From an uncultured Clostridia bacterium (GTDB taxonomy: Bacteria > Bacillota > Clostridia > TANB77 > CAG-508), in NCBI GenBank assembly GCA_944388605.1, contig CALXJJ010000003.1, forward strand, positions 3,091 through 67,090: DNA of 64,000 nt. Reading direction: 5' to 3'. Made by a program: the position numbers and the translations under genes. Shown piece after piece: positions 23,795-61,291 of the stretch (position 1 is its first letter; each line of letters begins with the position of its first letter). Below the pieces are notes generated by a model, which ran no database searches, was not told the origin of the DNA, and saw only the letters and a program-made list of their open reading frames with translations.

Positions 23795-23832
23795 AAAAAA
23801 GCCTTAAAATATTGATTATTTAAGGCTTTTTT
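23795..23832. terminator. Bidirectional terminator hairpin shared by tRNA-Trp and whiA
   Basis: AAAAAAGCCTTAAA...TTTAAGGCTTTTTT, with A- and T-runs on both sides. It overlaps the whiA stop. Confidence 0.6.
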
Positions 23833-24677
23833 AGTTTTTTTGTTATTTCTTCTGCTATTTTTTCTATAGATTTTAATCTATGATTTATTCCAGATTTTCC
23901 TATTTTTTCTGTTAACATATGTCCTAATTCAGCAAGTGTTGCTTCAGGATTTTCTAACCTTAATTTAGCTACTTCTTGTAATTGCTCTGGAATTTTATTA
24001 AACTCATTATATTTCTGTATTATTTTAATTGCTTGTATTTGTTTTGCTGAGGCTTGTGCAGTTTTATTTAAGTTTGCAGTTTCACAATTTACTATTCTAT
24101 TAACATTATTCCTCATATCTCTTAATGCTCTTGCTTCTTCAAATTTAAGTACTGAAGTGTTAGCTCCTATGAATGCTAAAAATTTTGATATTTCATCTCC
24201 ATCTTTTATATATACAGAATTACCATTACTTTTTCTTATTCTTTTTACTTCTATACCATATTTATTTAGTATTTTACTTATTTTGTCCACTAATACATCT
24301 TCTTTTATATTTATTTCTAAATGATAATTATTTTTTGGTTCATTTATAGAACCATTCCCCATAAAAACTCCTCTTATATATGCTTTTTCTAATACTTCTT
24401 TACTTAAATTTATACTTTCTATTTTCAAATTATTTTTAAAGGTAACTATATAATTATTTCCTTTCACTTGTATATTATACTTTTCTATACCTATATTTTT
24501 AAGCAATTTTATAAATCTGTTTATATTATATTCATTTTCTGTTGCATATTCTATATTTTTATTTGTTTCTATTCTTTTATTAATCATGTACCCTTTAAAT
24601 TCTGCTAATACTGACTCTTTGTCCTTCAAATTTTTAATTTTGCTAAGTTCCTCTTTTACATCAAAACTAAAAGACAT
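23820..24677 (-). CDS. whiA: DNA-binding sporulation/cell-division regulator WhiA
   Basis: N-terminus MSFSFDVKEELSKI, a degenerate LAGLIDADG-like middle (YIRGVFMGNGSI) and a C-terminal HTH (LAELGHMLTEKIGKSGINHRLKSIEKIA). Confidence 0.9.
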   Translation of the reverse strand: MSFSFDVKEELSKIKNLKDKESVLAEFKGYMINKRIETNKNIEYATENEYNINRFIKLLKNIGIEKYNIQVKGNNYIVTFKNNLKIESINLSKEVLEKAYIRGVFMGNGSINEPKNNYHLEINIKEDVLVDKISKILNKYGIEVKRIRKSNGNSVYIKDGDEISKFLAFIGANTSVLKFEEARALRDMRNNVNRIVNCETANLNKTAQASAKQIQAIKIIQKYNEFNKIPEQLQEVAKLRLENPEATLAELGHMLTEKIGKSGINHRLKSIEKIAEEITKKLKKP

Positions 24678-25510
24678 TAGTTCCCCCTATCTTTTGTTGC
24701 AATTATAATTCTGTCATTTCCAGAGATATCCTTCTTGCAATAAATATTTTTATAATTTTTTTCTTTTTTTAATAGTTCTATTACAGAATTTCTTTGATTA
24801 TAGCCTATTTCAAGTGCTAATATTCCATTTTCTTTTAAATATTTTACAGCATTTTTAGCTATTATTTTATAATAGTTTAGTCCATCTTTTCCGCCATATA
24901 ACGCAATTAAAGGTTCATGTTTTACTTCTAAATTCAAATTTTCCATATCTTTTTCATCAATATATGGTGGATTAGAAACTATTATATCGTATTTATCATT
25001 AATATTTTCAAACATATCTGATTTAACTATTCTTAAATTTTTTTCTAATATATTAATACTATTTTTTTTAGCTATTTTTAATGCTTTTTCACTTATATCT
25101 GACAAAGTAACATTTGCTCCTGTTATAGCACAAATACTTATACCTATAGCTCCGCTTCCAGTACATAAATCTAATATACTGTCACTTTTCTTAGCTAATT
25201 TAACTACCTCTTCTACTAATATTTCTGTATCTGGTTGGGGTATTAATACATTTTCATCCACAAAAAATTTACATTTCATAAATTCTTGAGTATTAGTAAT
25301 ATATTGAACAGGCATTCCATTTTTTAACTTTTCTAGATCTTTTATAAAGATTTCTTCTGTTTTTGGATCTATCTCTTTGTCTTGGTTTATTACAAGAAAG
25401 CTAGTATCTACATTTAATAGATATTTTAACAATATTTTTATTTTTATACTAGCTTCTTCTACATTTTTTAATTCTCTAATTCCATATGTTCTTAATTCTC
25501 TTAATTTCAT
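24677..25510 (-). CDS. prmC: Release-factor glutamine N5-methyltransferase PrmC/HemK
   Basis: SAM motif ILDLCTGSGAIG and catalytic NPPYI. Confidence 0.88.
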   Translation of the reverse strand: MKLRELRTYGIRELKNVEEASIKIKILLKYLLNVDTSFLVINQDKEIDPKTEEIFIKDLEKLKNGMPVQYITNTQEFMKCKFFVDENVLIPQPDTEILVEEVVKLAKKSDSILDLCTGSGAIGISICAITGANVTLSDISEKALKIAKKNSINILEKNLRIVKSDMFENINDKYDIIVSNPPYIDEKDMENLNLEVKHEPLIALYGGKDGLNYYKIIAKNAVKYLKENGILALEIGYNQRNSVIELLKKEKNYKNIYCKKDISGNDRIIIATKDRGN

Positions 25511-50987: not shown

Positions 50988-51764
50988 TTATTCTACTGGC
51001 ATTGCTGAACCATAATTTTCTGTAATCCATGAATTATAATCAAATGGTTCTACTGTTTCAGGCACACCATAATCTACTCCAAAAGTATCTACTGTTAAAC
51101 TTTTTATTACTGGTGGATTTACTGGTTTGTCTACACCCTCTTCAGCATTTTGATCTCTTGTTACAACTTCTACATTTTCAATTTGTTCTACTATATCCAT
51201 ACCTTCTATTACTTTACCAAATGCAGCATATAATCCATCTAAAGATTCATTATCTTCTGTCATAATAAAGAATTGTGAACCTCCTGAATTATATCCTTTT
51301 GTTGTTAATGTAGAACTTAAAGAACTATAATCAGCTCTTGCCATTGATATAACCCCTTTTTCATGTTTTAATGTGTTTTGATTAAATCCATTAGCAATAA
51401 ATTCTCCTTTTATATTATATTCTTCACTTCCACCATTATCTTTAATATCATTTAATGTTGGCGAACCTGTACCATCACCATTTTTATCTCCACCTTGGAT
51501 CATAAAATCTGGTATTGTCCTATGAAACACTTTTCCATTATAAAATCCTCTATTTGCTAAGCATATAAAATTTGCAACTGTATTAGGTGCCATATCTGGA
51601 TATAATTTTATTTTTATAGTTCCAAAATTTTCCACTTCCATTGTAGCTATCGGATTTTTTACTTCTTCTGTTAATTTTTTATAATAACCGTACCCTAAAT
51701 ACCCTAATGCACCTATAATAATTATTATTCCTATTATAATTAATATATTTTTTAAAATTTTCAT
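50988..51764 (-). CDS. Cyclophilin-type peptidyl-prolyl isomerase with an N-terminal membrane anchor
   Basis: APNTVANFICLANRGFYNGKVFHRTIPDFMIQGGD. Confidence 0.9.
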   Translation of the reverse strand: MKILKNILIIIGIIIIIGALGYLGYGYYKKLTEEVKNPIATMEVENFGTIKIKLYPDMAPNTVANFICLANRGFYNGKVFHRTIPDFMIQGGDKNGDGTGSPTLNDIKDNGGSEEYNIKGEFIANGFNQNTLKHEKGVISMARADYSSLSSTLTTKGYNSGGSQFFIMTEDNESLDGLYAAFGKVIEGMDIVEQIENVEVVTRDQNAEEGVDKPVNPPVIKSLTVDTFGVDYGVPETVEPFDYNSWITENYGSAMPVE

Positions 51765-51782: not shown

Positions 51783-52859
51783 CTATAACATTACATTATC
51801 AAACACAAATTGTTCTTGCATTCTTTTTAAAGATTGTTTTATAGTTCTTGCTCTAATTTCACCTATTCCATCCACATCATCTAAAGCTTGTATATCTGCT
51901 ACTAATATATGTTGGAACGATTTAAAAGATTTTACTAGATTTACTACTATATTACTTGGCATTCTTGGAACTTTACTTAATATTCTGTATCCTCTTGTAT
52001 ATACTCCAACATCATCATAATTGTCAAAATCTTCATATCCTAATAATTTTGCTATTACTTGTGGTTTATTTAATTCCTCTAATTCTAACTGACTTATTTC
52101 TTCTAGCACCTTTTCTGTAGTGCGTTTTTTGCCTGTTGCAATATAATCTTTTATTATAAGTAGTTCCTCTTTTTCAAGTCCTCCAACTAATTCTTCTAAT
52201 TGCATTTCTACTAATCTTCCTTCTACTCCTAATTCATATATTGCTTTTTGCACTTCATTTACAACTTTCATTACCATCTCAGCTCTTTGAATAGCACTTA
52301 CTACATTTTCTAATGTAACTATATCATTAAATTCATATTCATTTAACAAACTTAATTTTCCATCAAATACTTTTTTATATTTTTCAACAGTTTGCAATGC
52401 TTGATTTGCTCTTGTTAATACTTTTGATGTATCTTCTAAAACATATCTGTAATTACCTTTAAATATTGTAATTATATTTCTCCTTTGAGATATACTTACA
52501 ACTAGTTCTCCTGTTTGTTTTGCTGTACGTTCTGCTGTTCTATGTCTTGTTCCAGTTTCTGCAGTTGAAATATCTGATGATGGAATAAGTTGTGCATTTG
52601 CATATAATATTTTCTTAAAATCTTTACTTAATATAATAGCACCATCCATTTTTGCTAATTCATATAATCTTGCAGGTGTATACTCTACATCTAAGCTAAA
52701 TCCACCATCTACTAAATCTAATACTTCTTTTGAATCACTAAATACTAATAGTCCCCCTGTTTTTGCCTTTAATATACTTTCTAATCCATCTCTTATAGCT
52801 GTTCCTGGTGCAATTAATTTTAAAACATCTGTAATAACATCGTTTTTACTATTTCTCAC
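51783..52859 (-). CDS. disA: DNA integrity scanning protein DisA (diadenylate cyclase)
   Basis: LKLIAPGTAIRDGLESILKAKTGGLLV...DGAIILS...GTRHRTAERTAKQTG, with a C-terminal HhH. Confidence 0.93.
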   Translation of the reverse strand: MRNSKNDVITDVLKLIAPGTAIRDGLESILKAKTGGLLVFSDSKEVLDLVDGGFSLDVEYTPARLYELAKMDGAIILSKDFKKILYANAQLIPSSDISTAETGTRHRTAERTAKQTGELVVSISQRRNIITIFKGNYRYVLEDTSKVLTRANQALQTVEKYKKVFDGKLSLLNEYEFNDIVTLENVVSAIQRAEMVMKVVNEVQKAIYELGVEGRLVEMQLEELVGGLEKEELLIIKDYIATGKKRTTEKVLEEISQLELEELNKPQVIAKLLGYEDFDNYDDVGVYTRGYRILSKVPRMPSNIVVNLVKSFKSFQHILVADIQALDDVDGIGEIRARTIKQSLKRMQEQFVFDNVML

Positions 52860-52875: not shown

Positions 52876-54228
52876 CTATAATCCCAATTTATTAATTGCT
52901 TCCCCTATATTTCTAACGCTTATTATATCTAATTTATACTTTTCTTTCAAGAGTTTTTTATTATTTTCTGGAATTATACATTTTTTAAATCCCATTTTTT
53001 CACATTCCTTCAATCTTTTATCTATCATATTAATAGTTCTTATCTCACCTGTTAACCCTATTTCTCCCATAGCTACAACATCTTTTGGTATGCTTTTATT
53101 TTTAAAACTAGAAACCAATGCTAATGCAACTCCTAAATCAACTGCTGGTTCTGTTATTTTTATTCCACTTACTACATTAACATAGGCATCTTGATTACTA
53201 ATTGACATTTTTGCATGTTTTTCAAGAACTGCTATTAATAATGTAACTTTATTATAATCAATTCCATTTGCCACTCTTCTTGGTACTCCATAAACTGCAA
53301 ATGATGTTAATGCTTGTATTTCTATAAGTAATGGCCTAGTACCTTCCATACTAGCAACTATTATTGAGCCTGCTGGATTATCTTCTCTTTCTGAAATTAA
53401 AATAGAGGATGGGTTTGTAATTTCCACCATTCCTTCGTTTTGCATTTCAAACATACCTATCTCGTTTGTTGAACCAAAACGATTTTTCACACTTCGTATT
53501 ACTCTATATGAAAAATATCTTTCTCCTTCTATGTATAAAACTGCATCTACCATATGTTCTAAAACTCTTGGTCCTGCTATATTTCCATCTTTAGTAACAT
53601 GTCCTATTATTATTGTGGTAATAGCATTTGCTTTACATATTCTCATTATCCTTGCTGTTATTTCTCTTACTTGGCTTACAGTACCAGCTACTGATGTAAT
53701 TTCACTACTATACATTGTCTGTATTGAATCTATAATAACAAGCTTAGGATTCATATTTAGAATATTTTCTTCTATTATATCAATATCTGTTTCTGCTAAA
53801 AACATTATATTTTCATTTTTTATTTTCATCCTATCTGCTCTTATTTTTACTTGTTCTGCAGATTCTTCTCCAGAAACATATAATACTTTTCCATTTCCTT
53901 CAATTTTATCACATACTTCTAATATTAAAGTTGATTTCCCTATGCCAGGTTCTCCACCGATTAAAATAAGTGAGCCTTTTACTATCCCACCTCCCAAAAC
54001 TCTATCTAATTCTCCTATTTTTGTGCTTGTTCTTGCAATTTCCTTTCCCTCAATATTATTAAGTAAAGTTGGAACAGATTTAACTTTACTACTTGCTGTT
54101 TTTGTTGTATTTACTACTTTTTCTTCGTAAAAACTATTCCATTCATTACATGCAGGACATTTTCCTAACCATTTTGCAGATTCGTACCCACACTGATTAC
54201 AAACAAACACAGTCTTTGTTTTTGCCAT
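52876..54228 (-). CDS. radA: DNA repair protein RadA/Sms
   Basis: Zinc finger CNQCGYESAKWLGKCPACNEW, Walker A GGEPGIGKST, the KNRFG motif, and a Lon-like C-terminus. Confidence 0.95.
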   Translation of the reverse strand: MAKTKTVFVCNQCGYESAKWLGKCPACNEWNSFYEEKVVNTTKTASSKVKSVPTLLNNIEGKEIARTSTKIGELDRVLGGGIVKGSLILIGGEPGIGKSTLILEVCDKIEGNGKVLYVSGEESAEQVKIRADRMKIKNENIMFLAETDIDIIEENILNMNPKLVIIDSIQTMYSSEITSVAGTVSQVREITARIMRICKANAITTIIIGHVTKDGNIAGPRVLEHMVDAVLYIEGERYFSYRVIRSVKNRFGSTNEIGMFEMQNEGMVEITNPSSILISEREDNPAGSIIVASMEGTRPLLIEIQALTSFAVYGVPRRVANGIDYNKVTLLIAVLEKHAKMSISNQDAYVNVVSGIKITEPAVDLGVALALVSSFKNKSIPKDVVAMGEIGLTGEIRTINMIDKRLKECEKMGFKKCIIPENNKKLLKEKYKLDIISVRNIGEAINKLGL

Positions 54229-54467
54229 TTTTAATAATTAGCCTCCTTTTTTTGTATAATTGTTCAAAATATTCTCCACTTTTATTATCATTTTATCTAA
54301 ATATATAATGTTCATCTTTTTAAGCATTAAAATTATAATTGTTTAATTTTGATAACATTATAACACAGTTTTTTAAACAATTCTAGTTTATCTGTAGCTT
54401 TTCTCTACTTTTTAATATTTGCAATATTAAATTAATATATGGTAAGAAAAGTATAAAATTATAATAC

Positions 54468-54683
54468 AAAAAAATACCCCACGTTTAAGCCGTAAGATGA
54501 ATGAAATTTTAAGGACCTGCTTGCACAGGTGGGTGTCTTGTTGAATGCTTATGGGCTTCTTACTACTAAATAGTGTAAGCTTGCACGCCACATTCAAAGT
54601 CGGACTCCCTTTTAATATTTGTTGGTTCTAAAATTCCAGTCTACACGCACTTCGTAGGGAAATTAATAACTTATTTAATTGTT
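54468..54683 (-). ncRNA. Candidate stand-alone structured sRNA of about 200 nt (rod-shaped, 6S-like architecture)
   Basis: A G+C-rich island at 54477-54659 whose ends and successive inner segments pair. The minus strand has a promoter-like TTGAAA-17-TGTTAATAT (54718-54690) and a U7 tract directly 3' of the closing stem. The family is not confirmed. Confidence 0.4.
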
Positions 54684-54865
54684 GTTTATATATTAACATA
54701 TATAAAATATATTTTCAAGTCTTATTTTATCCATTTTATTTAATTATATTCGTTTTGTTCTATTTTTCTTATCCTTTTACTACTTTATTTAATTTTTTCA
54801 TTGTTTGATTTTTTATTAATTTTATGCTATAATATTTTTAATTATTGAGTATAAGGAGATTACTT

Positions 54866-55705
54866 ATGAAAAAAACAAATGATAACAATAATAACAAAAA
54901 AATTTATTTTAAAGAAATTGTAAAATCTATTTTTTTGTTGTTATTTTTTTTCGCTCTATGCTATATTATTTTTTCTGTAATAAACACACATATTTTAGCT
55001 AAAGATTTTGCTTATGATATGACTAATAAATATAATTTTTATTCTGAAAATATTTTTAGTATTGATAAAATATATTTTTTCAGTAGTGCAACTGCTGATA
55101 ATAATGAACAAAATAAAGCTTTATGGGATTTAAATATTCACCAATTTACAGATATAGCATTATATATTAATAATAACAATTCTCAGAATAATTTCACATC
55201 TGAAAATACAATCAACTCATTATCAATAGAAAACATTAATTTTAATAATATATCAATTGGAGAGCCAAATTTGTATTTTAAAAGTATAACTAATTTTGGC
55301 AAATATATTAAAGATGATAATAATTTAATAAACAATAATTTATCTTTTGAAATACTAGATAATACAAATGAAATAAATTATGAACTTCCTCAAATTCACA
55401 ATACATGTGATGAACCAATTACCTTATCATATATCAATTCAAGTATAGTAAAAAATAAAATCATTACAGATATTTCTGAACCTTTAACTTTCAATGGTAG
55501 CTTATTGAAAAAATCTGGAATTACTATTTCAAGTATATCTGGGGTTGTATCTTTTGATATTCGTATTAAAACAAATTCTAACAAAACATTTGTTGCTAAT
55601 GTATATTTTAGTGTTCCTCTTGGACAAAATGATTCTAATAATGTTTATTCAGGTCAGTATATATATGAAACTAATCCTAATATTCGTTTTATAAGACAAG
55701 AATAA
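54866..55705 (+). CDS. Hypothetical Asn-rich, membrane-anchored protein (279 aa)
   Basis: The ATG at 54866 follows AAGGAG. It has an N-terminal anchor IVKSIFLLLFFFALCYIIFSVI followed by a beta-rich Asn/Ser/Ile domain. No family recognised. Confidence 0.6.
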   Translation: MKKTNDNNNNKKIYFKEIVKSIFLLLFFFALCYIIFSVINTHILAKDFAYDMTNKYNFYSENIFSIDKIYFFSSATADNNEQNKALWDLNIHQFTDIALYINNNNSQNNFTSENTINSLSIENINFNNISIGEPNLYFKSITNFGKYIKDDNNLINNNLSFEILDNTNEINYELPQIHNTCDEPITLSYINSSIVKNKIITDISEPLTFNGSLLKKSGITISSISGVVSFDIRIKTNSNKTFVANVYFSVPLGQNDSNNVYSGQYIYETNPNIRFIRQE

Positions 55706-55732
55706 AGACAGATAATAAATAATTTTCTGTCT

Positions 55733-56617
55733 TTATTCTTTTAAAATTATATCCCTTTTTATAAATCCATTTTCCATTATTCCTGTTCCTATAAAAATTT
55801 TTCTACTATATATTTTATATACTCCATCTACACTCTTTTCTGCTAAAATTCCTTTTTCTTTATAGTTTAACTTTACACCATTTAATAAAAGTTTTATCTT
55901 ATTTTCATTCATATACACTGAATATTTATCATTAAAAAACTCTTCTATACTTATAATGTGATTTTCTATTTCACTTAAATTTTCTATTGCTTGTTCTATA
56001 CTAAATTTTCCAACTGTTAATCTTCGCAATTCTTTCATATAGCCAATAGTTCCTAGTTTTACTGCTATATCTTCACATAATGACCTAATATATGTACCTT
56101 TTGAGCAATGAACTTTAAATACTATTATTTCATTGTATTCATCTATTTGTTTTAATTCTATACTATATATTTCAATATTTCTCTTTTTATCAGCAATATT
56201 TATTTTTTGATTTTTTCTTGCATACTCATATAATTTCTTACCATTTATTTTTAATGCAGAGTAAATTGGTGGTATTTGTTCTTGTACACCTATAAAACTA
56301 TTTAAAATACTAATTACATTTTTTTGTTTAAATATTTCTTTACTAACCGTTTTTTCTTCTAAAATCCTACCTTCACTATCCATAGTATCTGTTTTTATTC
56401 CTAGCTGTAATGTAGCAATATATGTTTTATCATGCTCTATTAAATATTTACTCAATTTAGTACCTTTATTTATTAATAATGGTAATAATCCTGTTGCATT
56501 CGGATCTAAAGTTCCTGTATGTCCTACTGTTTTTGTATTTAAAATTTTTTTTACTTTTCTTACAATATCATAAGAAGTAACTCCTTTAGGTTTATCAACT
56601 AATAAAATTCCATCCAT
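55733..56617 (-). CDS. truB: tRNA pseudouridine(55) synthase TruB
   Basis: MDGILLVDKPKGVTSYDIV...GHTGTLDPNATGLL. Confidence 0.93.
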   Translation of the reverse strand: MDGILLVDKPKGVTSYDIVRKVKKILNTKTVGHTGTLDPNATGLLPLLINKGTKLSKYLIEHDKTYIATLQLGIKTDTMDSEGRILEEKTVSKEIFKQKNVISILNSFIGVQEQIPPIYSALKINGKKLYEYARKNQKINIADKKRNIEIYSIELKQIDEYNEIIVFKVHCSKGTYIRSLCEDIAVKLGTIGYMKELRRLTVGKFSIEQAIENLSEIENHIISIEEFFNDKYSVYMNENKIKLLLNGVKLNYKEKGILAEKSVDGVYKIYSRKIFIGTGIMENGFIKRDIILKE

Positions 56618-56632
56618 ACTTAATAGCATTCC

Positions 56633-57589
56633 TTATTTTAATTGTAATTTAATTTGGGTTACTAATTTTTCTTTTATTTGATTAATATCTCCCTGCATCA
56701 TACATCCTGCTGCTTTTGTGTGACCTCCACCACCATATATTAGACACACATCAGATACATTAACATAATCATTTGATCTTAAAGATGCTTTTATTCCTTT
56801 ATCAGTATCTCTTAGGAAAATAGAAACTTCTACTCCTTCAACACTTCTACCTATTTCAACAATACCTTCATGATCTCCACTTTTTGCTTCATATTTTTCT
56901 TCATCCTCTTTTGTTATATATGTAAAGGCAATTTTTCCATCACATAAAAATTCTATTCTATCTATAGCTATTCTTGTCAATTCAAAATTTGCTCTCGTTT
57001 TTGTATTCATAGCTTTTTTATATATGTCTGATACTAATACCCCTTTATTCAATAACCATGCAACAAATTCAAATGTCTCTGCTGTAACACTAGAATATTG
57101 GAATCCACCAGTATCTGTAATTATGCCAGTTAATATACAAGTTCCTATATCCTTTGTTACTTCCATTCTCCAACTTTCTAATAAAACTAATATTACTTGT
57201 GTGCAAGATGGAGCATTTGGAATTACATAATTATAATCTCCAAACATTGTATTTGTACTATGATGATCAATAACAACTTTAGATTTTGCATTTTCAAAAT
57301 ATTTTCCAAAACCATTAAGCATTTTTATTGTTGCTGAATCAACTGAAATAGCTAAATCATATTGTTTAATATCAGATTCTACTTTTATATTATTTATTTC
57401 TGGTAAAAATTCAAATGTTTTTGAATATTCTGGTATTATTATATCGGGATTTTTTCCATAATTTTTTAGTGCTATATACATAGCAATAGCACTACCCATT
57501 GCATCTCCATCTGGGTTTTCATGAGTCAGTATAATGATAGAATTAGCCTTATCTATCTCTTCTAATATTTTATCCATTGTCATATACAT
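56633..57589 (-). CDS. nrnA: DHH/DHHA1 phosphoesterase (NrnA-like nanoRNase/pAp phosphatase)
   Basis: HENPDGDAMGS, DHH in VIDHHSTN, and GGGH near the C-terminus. Confidence 0.85.
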   Translation of the reverse strand: MYMTMDKILEEIDKANSIIILTHENPDGDAMGSAIAMYIALKNYGKNPDIIIPEYSKTFEFLPEINNIKVESDIKQYDLAISVDSATIKMLNGFGKYFENAKSKVVIDHHSTNTMFGDYNYVIPNAPSCTQVILVLLESWRMEVTKDIGTCILTGIITDTGGFQYSSVTAETFEFVAWLLNKGVLVSDIYKKAMNTKTRANFELTRIAIDRIEFLCDGKIAFTYITKEDEEKYEAKSGDHEGIVEIGRSVEGVEVSIFLRDTDKGIKASLRSNDYVNVSDVCLIYGGGGHTKAAGCMMQGDINQIKEKLVTQIKLQLK

Positions 57590-57594
57590 TCCCC

Positions 57595-57960
57595 CTATTC
57601 TTCACTTTTTTTCAAGTCTTCTATAACTTTTTCTATTCTTGCTCCATATTCCATAGAATCATCTTTTTCAAATATTAGTTCTGGTGTGATTCTTAAATTT
57701 ATTCTTTTTGCTATTAAAGTTCTTACAAAACCTGCAGATCTCTTCAAAGTATCTATAGTATCTTTTTCACTCTTTGAATTCAAAATACTAACATATACTT
57801 TTGCATATTTTAAATCTGGAGTAATTTTTACTTTAGTTACACTTATTAATCCTGTTAGATTAGGATCTTTTATTTCATAACTAATTATTTGACTTAATTC
57901 TTTTCTAAGCTCTTCATCAATACGTCCTAGCCTAGCTTGGTTTTTCCCCATATTAATCAC
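57595..57960 (-). CDS. rbfA: Ribosome-binding factor A
   Basis: RIDEELRKELSQIISYEIKDPNLTGLISVTKVKITPDLKYAKVYVS. Confidence 0.93.
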   Translation of the reverse strand: MINMGKNQARLGRIDEELRKELSQIISYEIKDPNLTGLISVTKVKITPDLKYAKVYVSILNSKSEKDTIDTLKRSAGFVRTLIAKRINLRITPELIFEKDDSMEYGARIEKVIEDLKKSEE

Positions 57961-58080
57961 ATTTCCTTCCTTTTTAATTTTTTGTTAATTGTGTTCAATG
58001 TTAGAGCATAGTGAATTTTAATATTAGAAACAAAATTGCGGATATTAACTATATATTTTATCCGCATTTTGTTAATTAAT

Positions 58081-60981
58081 TTATTTTTTTACTTCTTCCA
58101 TAACAAATACTTCTATGATGTCTCCTTCTTTTATATCATTATAATTTTCTATTTGCATACCACATTCAAAACCTTTGGTTACTTCTTTTACATCATCTTT
58201 AAATCTTTTTAATGACGCCAATTTTCCTTCATGAATAACTACATCATCTCTTATTACTCTTACTTCTGCATTTCTTTCTACTTTTCCAGAAAGTACATAA
58301 CCACCTGCTATTGTTCCTACATTTGAAACTTTAAATACTTGTCTAATTTCAACATTTCCAATAACTTTTTCTTCAAACACAGGATCTAAAAGTCCTTTCA
58401 TTGCAAGTTTTATGTCTTCTAATGCTTGATATATAACTGAATATTGTTTAATTTCAACATTTTCTTTTTCGGCAACTTCTTTAGCTATTGAAACAGGTCT
58501 TACATTAAATGCTAATATTATTGCATTTGCAACATTTGCCAAATTTACATCAGACTCATTTACTGCCCCTACAGCTGCATGTATTACTTTTACTCTTACT
58601 GATTCATCTGATAATTTTTCAATAGATTGTTTTAAAGCTTCTGCTGTTCCTTGTACATCTGCTTTAACTATAATATTTAATTGTTTAATATTTCCTTGTT
58701 CCATTTGACTAAATAGATTATCTAATGTAACTTTATTTATATTATTTATTGATTTCTCTCTTTGAGTTCTTTTTCTTCTTTCTATTAGATGTTTTGCCAT
58801 TTTTTCATTCTTTACTTCATAGAATGTATCTCCTGCTTCTGGCACTTCTGTTAATCCCATAATTTCAACTGGAGTCGATGGACCTGCACTTTTTACTTTT
58901 TGACCCTTATCATTTTTCATAGCTCTTATTCTACCAATTGCAGACCCTACTACTATTGTATCTCCTACATCTAATTTTCCTCTTTGAACTAACATTGATG
59001 CAATTGGTCCTCTTGATTTGTCAAGTCTTGCTTCTATTACAACACCTTTTGCTTGCTTATTTGGATTTACTTTTAAATCTTGCATATCTGCTACTAATAG
59101 TACCATTTCTAATAAATTTTCTATATTAATATGTTTTTTAGCAGAAATTGGAACAAATATAGTATCTCCTCCCCATTCTTCTGGAACTAAATCATATTTC
59201 ATTAATTCTTGTTTTATTTTTTCTACATCTGCTCCTGGGAGATCTATTTTATTCACTGCTACTATTATTGGTATTTCTGCTGCTTTTGCATGATTTATAG
59301 CTTCTACTGTTTGTGGCATAACACCATCATCTGCTGCTACAACTAAAATAGCAATATCTGTTATTTGTGCTCCTCTTGCTCTCATTGATGTAAATGCTTC
59401 ATGTCCAGGAGTATCTAAAAATGTTATTTCTCTTCCATTTACATTTACTTTATATGCACCAATATGTTGTGTAATACCTCCTGCTTCTCCTTCTATTACA
59501 TTTGTACTTCTTACTGCATCAAGAAGTGAAGTCTTACCATGGTCAACATGCCCCATTACTACTACTACTGGTGGTCTAGCAACTAATTCTTCCTCTTTAT
59601 CTTCAGATTCATCAAACAATATATCTTCTTCTTTTACAACCTCTTTTTTGTGTGCTGTAACTCCAAATTCCTCTGCTACTAAAAATGCTGTATCAAAATC
59701 TATTTCATTATTTATAGTAGCCATTACTCCATATCCTAATAATTTTTTTATTACTTCACTGCTAGTCTTTTTCAATTCTGTTGCTAAATCTTTTACTGTT
59801 ATAGTTTCTGGTATGGTTATTTCAGTTAATTTAAATATTTTTTGTTTGTTTCTTTCTTCATTATTTTTTTGCTTTTTCTTAGAACGTCTTCCTCTTTCTG
59901 TTGTCAAATCATAATAATCTAACATTCCACCTTCTTGATCATCAAACATATGTGACAATTTATCTACTTGTTTCAAATTTTTTAGTTTTCCTTCATCTAC
60001 TTCATCAAATCTTCCGTTTTTTCTGCCTCTATTAGTTTTCTTTGCCTTTTCTTCATACATCCTATTATTTTTTTCTTTATCTATAGCTCTTGTACTAAAA
60101 TCTCTTTGATTTTCTCTTTCTGGCATATCTGCAGACATTATATTCTTTATATTTTTGTCTATTCCTTTTTCATCTAATGGTCTATTTTTACTATATCCAT
60201 TTTTATTATTTCCATAGTTATTATTTCTATTAAAATTGCGTTGTCCATTTTGATTATTATCTTGTCTATTTCTATTATACCCTTGATTTTGATTATTTTT
60301 ATGGAAATTATTTTTTTGCCCATTTTGTTGATTATTTTGGTAATTATTATAACGGCTCTTATTTTGATTACTTTGATTTTTGTTAAACCTATTATTATTA
60401 TTATATCCATTATTTTGATTATTATTTCTGTTATTAACTAGTTTATTTTCTTTTTTCTCAACTTCTTGCTTTTCCACTTCTTTTTTATTTTCTTCTATAC
60501 TATTCTTTATTTCATCTTCTGCTTTTACTTCTTTTAGTTCATTTTTATTAATTTTCACTTTATCCTCTTTCTCATCTTTTTTATTTATTCCAAATAGTTC
60601 GTCAACTGTTAGTGGTTTTGCTGTCCTATTTCTATAAACTATATTGAAATCTTTATTTTTACTTCTCTCTACAAAACCTACATTTTCTCTTCTTTTGTTT
60701 TCTTGTTGTTTCTTTTCTTCTTGTTTATTCTCATCAGCAATAATTACTTCTCTACGAATTATAACTGGCGCTTCTTTTTTTATTTCTTTTTTCTTCTTAG
60801 GTTCTTCTTCTTTTACTTTTCCAATATTTTTATATAATTTTCTTATTTGGTTTGCTTGCTCTTCTTCTACACCACTTAAATGGCTTTTTACCTCAAAACC
60901 TAATTCTTGTGCTTTTTCTAATATTTCTTTACTGGTTAAGCCTAATTCTTTCGCTATTTCATGTATTTTAATCTTACCCAA
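58081..60981 (-). CDS. infB: Translation initiation factor IF-2 with an Asn/Gln-rich low-complexity insert
   Basis: G domain [12 protein letters not shown]...DTPGHEAF...NKID. The probable TTG start at 60981 follows GGGGGTGA; the track GTG start is at 60996. Confidence 0.95.
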
Positions 60982-61291
60982 TAACTTCACCCCCACTAAT
61001 TAATTCTTGTATTTTTCTTGAAAAATTAACATCTGTAATTCCCACCATTTTCTTATTTTTCTTTCCTATTGATAAACTTATTTCTTCCATATTAGAATAC
61101 TCAATATATTGAACATTATTTATATTACATAAAAACTTGATATTTGACTTAGTCTTTTCTGATGCATCTTTAGCTATTATTAAAAGATATATTTTCTTTT
61201 TACTTATATATTGTTTGCATGCTTCATATCCAAATACAATCTTACCTGCTTTTGTAGCTAATCCCATCATTCCTAATACTTTATTTGTCAA
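60974..61291 (-). CDS. ylxQ: L7Ae-family RNA-binding protein YlxQ
   Basis: [38 protein letters not shown]. The start is uncertain: TTG at 61291 or ATG at 61270/61267. Confidence 0.8.

Follow-up and report, generated by a model that had tools for sequence, protein, structure and literature searches.

The G+C-rich island in the spacer upstream of radA is almost certainly the gene for 6S RNA (ssrS) in an uncultured Clostridia bacterium, a low-G+C gut organism. An Rfam scan of the 64-kb window (the whole stretch of DNA analysed here, 64,000 nucleotides) matched RF00013 (6S/SsrS) to minus-strand positions 54663-54472. The match scores 104.1 bits (E = 6.8e-20), where 46.4 is the gathering score. 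The score is thus more than twice the gathering threshold, and the match is full-length (model positions 1-187 of 187) and found on the minus strand only. When 4227 Rfam families were run against the whole window, just two matches reached the gathering threshold, this one and a distant tRNA. The annotated E. coli K-12 ssrS locus, used as a positive control, scored 139.8 bits in the same Rfam search. The original prediction, made from the letters of the DNA alone, had suspected a 6S-like architecture and left the family unconfirmed; the full-length RF00013 match now supplies the family. It had also described an island richer in G+C than its flanks, lying between the radA start at 54228 and an ORF beginning at 54866. 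All three are present, and the G+C fraction is 0.35-0.41 over approximately 54450-54650 vs 0.15-0.20 in both flanks.

The 6S family has been known since the 1960s-70s. The element reported here is an ordinary member of it and can be found by routine annotation, nothing argues against its membership of RF00013, and the current understanding of 6S RNA is unchallenged by these results. Their value lies chiefly in annotation, by placing a 6S gene, and not a novel sRNA, in the spacer upstream of radA; 6S RNA is a global regulator of sigma-A-dependent transcription. The features of the locus are collected in Table 1.

Table 1. Features of the 6S locus and of its neighbouring genes, in window coordinates.
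Feature	Position	Strand	Basis or remark
6S RNA (SsrS), 192 nt by Rfam limits	54472..54663	-	RF00013 match, MFE rod, covariation in 31 sequences
-35 hexamer TTGAAA	54713..54718	-	Consensus scan; conserved in related loci
Extended -10 TGT-TAATAT	54690..54698	-	Consensus scan, TG flagged; conserved in relatives
Spacer from -10 to Rfam 5' boundary; predicted start near 54683	54664..54689	-	-10 distance class
Closing stem, 5' strand; partner 54477-54493	54645..54659	-	Rfam-structure pairs; RNAalifold recovery
Bubble-bordering helix (P2, "downstream" helix), 5' strand UUUUAGAACC; partner 54507-54517	54624..54633	-	Rfam structure
Central bubble, 5' strand, nt 41-54; inferred pRNA start C43 (54621), A44 adjacent	54610..54623	-	Rfam alignment to E. 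coli
Hairpin (A)CCUGU-GCAA-GCAGG(U) in bubble 3' strand	54515..54530	-	Free-RNA MFE; RNAalifold; constrained folds
Internal and apical stem: GGG/CCC clamp, UUGAAUG/CAUUCAA, CUUAC/GUAAG, terminal loop 54564-54574	54531..54609	-	Rfam, MFE
U7 tract just past closing stem; probable intrinsic termination or 3'-end site	54468..54474	-	Sequence; terminator-like site in scan
radA	52876-54228	-	Zn-ribbon, KaiC/AAA_25 ATPase, Lon_C/ChlI domains
disA	51783-52859		Downstream of radA
Cyclophilin-type isomerase (PPIase)	50988-51764		Downstream of radA
orf279, 279 aa, hydrophobic N-terminal segment	54866-55705	+	

Secondary structure and covariation

Members of the 6S family are approximately 160-200 nt long and form a rod composed of a closing stem, a large central bubble and an apical stem (PMC8414754), the bubble being closed at either end by conserved G-C pairs (PMC3879012). 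The window RNA measures 192 nt, and its minimum free energy (MFE) structure is a rod of -52.3 kcal/mol (z = -3.25) that none of 200 dinucleotide shuffles folded as well as; RNAalifold gives the same helices from 31 sequences. We checked individual pairings against two structures, the MFE fold and the Rfam consensus mapped onto the sequence. Both contain the closing pairing that had been proposed for this island (CCCUACG at 54659-54653 with CGUGGGG at 54483-54477), as well as the pairing of UUGAAUG (54597-54591) with CAUUCAA (54547-54541) and the CUUAC/GUAAG apical stem that closes a loop at 54574-54564. The proposed inward helix is likewise found in both as UUUUAGAACC (54633-54624) with GGUCCUUAAAA (54517-54507), and the MFE fold lengthens it outward to GGAAUUUUAG / CUUAAAAUUUC. 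A small CCUG-N6-CAGG hairpin, at 54529-54516, is present in the MFE fold.

Relatives of the RNA were collected by scanning a metagenome collection with a 6S core pattern (GTGCAAGC, gap 30-60, CACCCACCTG, gap 3-9, CAGG), which returned 120 metagenomic loci. Searching these loci by nhmmer with the window RNA gave 43 relatives, 30 of them distinct and full-length at approximately 65-84% identity. Rfam was run on 16 of the 30, and every one was a full-length 6S RNA (16/16, 74-114 bits). We then built a structure-blind MAFFT alignment of the window RNA and the 30 relatives (A1, 31 sequences). Applied to A1, RNAalifold again yields the closing and apical stems, the internal helix, the GGG/CCC clamp and the bubble hairpin of the 3' strand. 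Of the 31 pairs it predicts, 14 show compensatory double changes; those in the closing stem fall at alignment columns 9/198, 12/194 and 13/193.

The Rfam structure fits the same alignment closely. Standard pairs occupy 78.6% of cells, a share that drops to 38.8-45.2% once the 3' partners are shifted by 1-3 columns, and the covariation score is 0.218 vs at most 0.081 for the shifted versions. Changes on both sides occur at 28 of 51 pairs, and the observed value was attained by none of 500 shuffles on any of five measures. Among individual helices, the bubble-bordering helix (helix 4) is paired in 88% of cells over the 31 sequences, helix 5 has both-side changes at 10 of its 17 pairs, and helix 7 is paired in 95% of cells. 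The invariance of GUGCAAGC, CACCCACCUG and CAGG in A1 was imposed by the search pattern, yet the partners that lie outside it (C39, C40, G55-57 and the fifth pair of the bubble hairpin) are still invariant or covarying. C39 and C40, in the UUUUAGAACC helix, are invariant, and the fifth hairpin pair is formed in 31/31 sequences as U-G, C-G, U-A or G-C. The pairs that close the bubble (C39-G148, C40-G147 and G55-57/C131-133) are likewise formed in 31/31, their 3' partners being fixed by the search pattern and their 5' partners free of it. The pair counts on the Rfam structure and the RNAalifold result, both over 31 sequences, bear out the rod of the original prediction and support its maintenance by covariation in relatives.

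Promoter and 5' leader

The promoter that had been proposed for the island, TTGAAA followed by a 17-nt spacer and TGT-TAATAT, was found again by a consensus scan. By itself the match does not exceed chance expectation for an AT-rich spacer such as this (9 promoter-like sites vs 5.8 +/- 2.1 in shuffles), and it is significant only because it is conserved in relatives. TTGnnn, a spacing of exactly 17 nt and TGn with TAATAT, TATTAT or TATAAT precede the RNA in 23 of 31 loci, and the mean best promoter score over the 31 loci is 9.9 vs 8.3 +/- 1.0 in shuffles. Because the promoter is conserved despite differing neighbour genes, it appears to travel with the RNA gene, which supports reading the 6S gene as a predicted independent transcription unit. 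The earlier idea of an independent minus-strand sRNA gene of approximately 200 nt with its own promoter and U-tract thus gains support from the conservation of both signals across differing gene contexts. In the family at large, 6S RNA is an abundant, stable species that builds up in stationary phase; for the window RNA, expression is suggested by the conserved promoter and U-tract.

The promoters fall into two distance classes, in which the -10 element ends either 8 nt or 20-32 nt before the CCC of the closing stem. Transcription in the 8-nt class would start at about the mature 5' end. The 20-32 nt class, to which the window and its closest relatives belong, implies an A-rich leader of approximately 20 nt with semi-conserved sequence. 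The leader resembles ACAAnUAAAUAAGUUAnUAA. The two classes were noted by comparing the window (54664-54689) with the upstream flanks of the relatives L091, L108, L099, L159 and L168. The 6S promoter of this clade is therefore characterized by a well-conserved TGn-extended -10 and by two distinct leader lengths.

The start predicted for the window RNA lies approximately 20 nt upstream of the Rfam 5' boundary, and the leader is probably trimmed. For comparison, RNase J1 matures the 5' end of 6S-1 in B. subtilis (PMC10578484); for the 6S RNA of C. acetobutylicum, Northern blots reveal several processed bands (PMC3879012). Less probably, the A-rich leader of the window-type clade might be kept and pair with the U-tail. 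Leader and 3' U-tract do pair in the MFE structure of the precursor, through weak A-U pairs in which both strands are homopolymer-like, so that covariation is uninformative there.

3' end and read-through

Seven U residues had been placed directly behind the closing stem. The U7 tract is present (the A7 run on the plus strand) and its placement is nearly exact, with just two nucleotides, UA, between it and the last stem G. The consensus scan reports a terminator-like site followed by AUUUUUUUGU, and such sites are above chance (2 vs 0.1 +/- 0.3 in shuffles). The sole local hairpin before the U7 (54498-54476) is weak, at -7.9 kcal/mol (z = -3.0) with three G-U pairs. With the U7 lying behind a long-range stem and this weak local hairpin, termination may be leaky. 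Relatives carry a comparable tract, with 7.9 T on average in the 12 nt past the closing stem against a background T fraction of 0.30.

Five relatives have a co-directional gene with a ribosome-binding site only 20-48 nt past the 6S RNA. In four of the five this gene is prmC, and in the fifth it is dnaE-like. These close-set downstream genes occur in L091 (4240 region), L094 (4410 region), L116, L161 and L202, and the dnaE-like product begins MSEFVHLH. A gap of 20-48 nt leaves no room for a separate promoter, which implies co-transcription with the 6S RNA; read-through followed by processing, like that of E. coli ssrS-fau, therefore probably takes place in this clade. It is a less favoured, rather unlikely proposal that in the window species, where a rearrangement put the 6S gene 243 nt before radA-disA with no strong promoter in between, a leaky terminator after the 6S gene lets part of radA-disA expression come from the 6S promoter. 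If true, it would couple radA-disA (DNA repair and the c-di-AMP checkpoint) to 6S synthesis, in a manner comparable to the co-transcription of E. coli ssrS and fau.

Genomic context and alternative readings

The island does lie upstream of radA, as originally described, but the link to radA reflects a species-specific gene order and not a functional one. We compared radA loci from 80 related species-level genomes of uncultured Clostridia, including "Clostridium sp. CAG:492", CAG:245 and CAG:273, whose RadA proteins are 72-78% identical. The order radA-disA-isomerase (PPIase) is kept in 80/80 of them, and no 6S RNA was detected within 3 kb of radA in any of the 80 by nhmmer or in 20 of them by Rfam. 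Four contigs of the same species as the window show the identical arrangement, each with a full-length nhmmer match at the same position. The 6S gene is not tied to radA, and their adjacency is species-specific and without evident functional meaning. The window radA has a GGAGG 13 nt from its ATG at 54228 (54229-54246, minus strand), an unusually long spacing; homology to the radA genes of relatives begins at this ATG, and the start therefore seems right.

The two closest relatives show the order infB-rbfA-nrnA-truB-6S-prmC-whiA on one strand (L091:2498-9445 and L094:23-5049). In the window, infB (58081-60996), rbfA, nrnA and truB (55733-56629) still precede the 6S gene on the minus strand (54472-60996), but orf279 lies between truB and 6S, and radA-disA-PPIase comes after 6S. 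Homologues of prmC and whiA lie approximately 29 kb from the 6S gene (24677-25510 and 23820-24677, minus strand). This changed order points to a rearrangement breakpoint at the 6S gene. When the 243-nt spacer between radA and 6S was compared with the sequence upstream of radA in relatives, homology stopped at the ribosome-binding site, and the breakpoint was not located by this comparison. The 6S gene thus changes context (between truB and prmC, before a dnaE-like gene, before radA) yet keeps its own transcription signals.

orf279, on the opposite strand from truB and 6S, occupies this place in the window species only; in L091 and L094 truB is followed directly by 6S. It matched no Pfam, NCBIfam or PHROG family. 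truB (minus) and orf279 (plus) converge with 27 nt between their stop codons (55705-55733), and the scan gave no terminator-like hairpin between them. On another contig, a SAM (S-box) riboswitch at L148:26-187(+) lies approximately 1.4 kb upstream of the 6S gene of that contig and is unrelated.

This distribution of contexts bears on the reading of the structure as a cis-acting 5' leader, or riboswitch-like element, of the radA-disA operon instead of a separate RNA gene. Such a leader is suggested by the short distance of 243 nt to radA, which lies downstream of the RNA and on its strand, by the weakness of the sole promoter-like match between the two (TAGAGA-16-TAGAAT, 9/12), and by the genes found directly past the 6S RNA in some relatives. 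It is nonetheless very improbable: no 6S RNA was detected within 3 kb of radA in the 80 relatives searched, the same RNA stands elsewhere upstream of prmC, a dnaE-like gene and other genes, it matches the 6S model and no cis-regulatory family, and a U7 tract lies between it and radA.

A mobile repeat (a MITE or REP-like palindrome) resembling a structured RNA would agree with a long imperfect inverted repeat whose G+C lies above its surroundings and with the location at a synteny breakpoint. The extra copies by which such a repeat might betray itself were sought in the window, where core segments of 21 and 25 nt are each single-copy with up to three mismatches allowed. Compensatory changes that keep pairing, together with conservation of the unpaired bubble, are not expected of a MITE, and the match to the 6S model is full-length; the chance that the island is a mobile repeat is accordingly negligible. 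We consider it just as far-fetched that the locus encodes a small protein, from a 56-aa ORF with a TTG start at 54427-54597 on the minus strand. This ORF is present in the window, but in most of the aligned relatives its frame contains stops or frameshifts. The start codon is not conserved, and substitutions preserve base pairs, not codons.

Predicted product RNA and proposed mechanism

6S RNA mimics an open promoter and competes with DNA promoters for the housekeeping holoenzyme. Its release comes with synthesis of a short product RNA (pRNA), for which the polymerase uses the 6S RNA as template (PMC8414754, PMC8876501). Using the published pRNA start sites U44 (E. coli) and C40 (B. subtilis 6S-1) (PMC8876501), we found by alignment through RF00013 that E. 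coli U44 corresponds to model position 45 and to C43 of the window RNA (coordinate 54621). In A1, conservation is complete at A42 and at least 90% at C43 and A44. The predicted pRNA, starting opposite C43, is 5'-GUUGGUUCUAAAAU. Hallmarks of Firmicutes pRNAs are an adenine beside the start, a GG and an A-run (PMC8414754); the predicted pRNA is compatible with them, having GG at positions 4/5 and A at positions 10-13, and template A44 lies beside C43. Its duplex with the template amounts to -18.6 kcal/mol. When template nt 30-43 were blocked in a constrained fold, the bubble-side helix was lost and the 6-bp hairpin of the 3' strand stayed intact. The "central bubble collapse helix" of B. subtilis 6S-1 had no clear counterpart by inspection, the complementarity being weak, or in constrained folds. 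This low-G+C gut Clostridia clade would have a B. subtilis-type 6S RNA with GUUGGUUCUAAAAU as its predicted pRNA.

From these elements a working cycle can be proposed, largely by analogy with characterized 6S RNAs. Transcription would start on the minus strand at the RNA's own putative sigma-A-type promoter, TTGAAA-17-TGTTAATAT, and the transcript would end, or be trimmed, at the U7, giving a precursor of approximately 215 nt that probably loses its A-rich leader, about 20 nt long. The mature RNA, of approximately 190 nt, is predicted to adopt the canonical rod, with a closing stem, an apical stem and, between invariant G-C pairs, a large central bubble. This rod may occupy the active site of the sigma-A RNA polymerase holoenzyme and so lower housekeeping transcription under nutrient scarcity. 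When NTPs return, the polymerase would template the pRNA from C43, and the growing pRNA would unzip the UUUUAGAACC/GGUCCUUAAAA helix beside the bubble, whose 5' strand would be the template for most of the pRNA, and the polymerase may thereby be released.

Comparison with known 6S RNAs

The window RNA shares its Rfam family, its rod and its large central bubble with B. subtilis 6S-1 (BsrA) and other RNAs of the Firmicutes 6S-1 type. Like B. subtilis 6S-1, it has a small preformed hairpin of 5-6 bp in the 3' strand of the bubble of the free RNA, and its predicted pRNA begins with G on a template C (PMC8876501). As predicted, the pRNA would also share two traits of the Firmicutes 6S-1 type, the adenine adjacent to its start and the GG close to its 5' end (PMC8414754), and a putative sigma-A-type promoter of its own with a 5' leader that is likely trimmed is again a likeness to B. 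subtilis 6S-1 (PMC10578484). The window RNA differs from these RNAs in having GG at positions 4/5 of the predicted pRNA instead of 5/6, in an A-run at 10-13 instead of one from position 9, and in being without a clear collapse helix.

E. coli ssrS belongs to the same family and has the same overall architecture, and the two RNAs both cover the Rfam model from end to end. In some relatives of the window RNA a co-directional gene follows directly, as fau follows ssrS. In free E. coli 6S RNA, the 3' strand of the bubble is unstructured, and an extended 9-bp hairpin forms there only after pRNA synthesis (PMC8876501); unlike it, the 6-bp hairpin of the window RNA is preformed and undergoes no extension in constrained folds. 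This preformed hairpin points to the B. subtilis 6S-1 type and not to the E. coli type. The E. coli pRNA starts with A on U44, whereas for the window RNA the predicted start is a G on C43. Among clostridial 6S RNAs, that of C. acetobutylicum (sCAC1377) is described with a predicted promoter and a rho-independent terminator, and Northern blots show it in several processed forms (PMC3879012). Compared by this published description, its layout is matched by the promoter, leader and U-tract of the window RNA.
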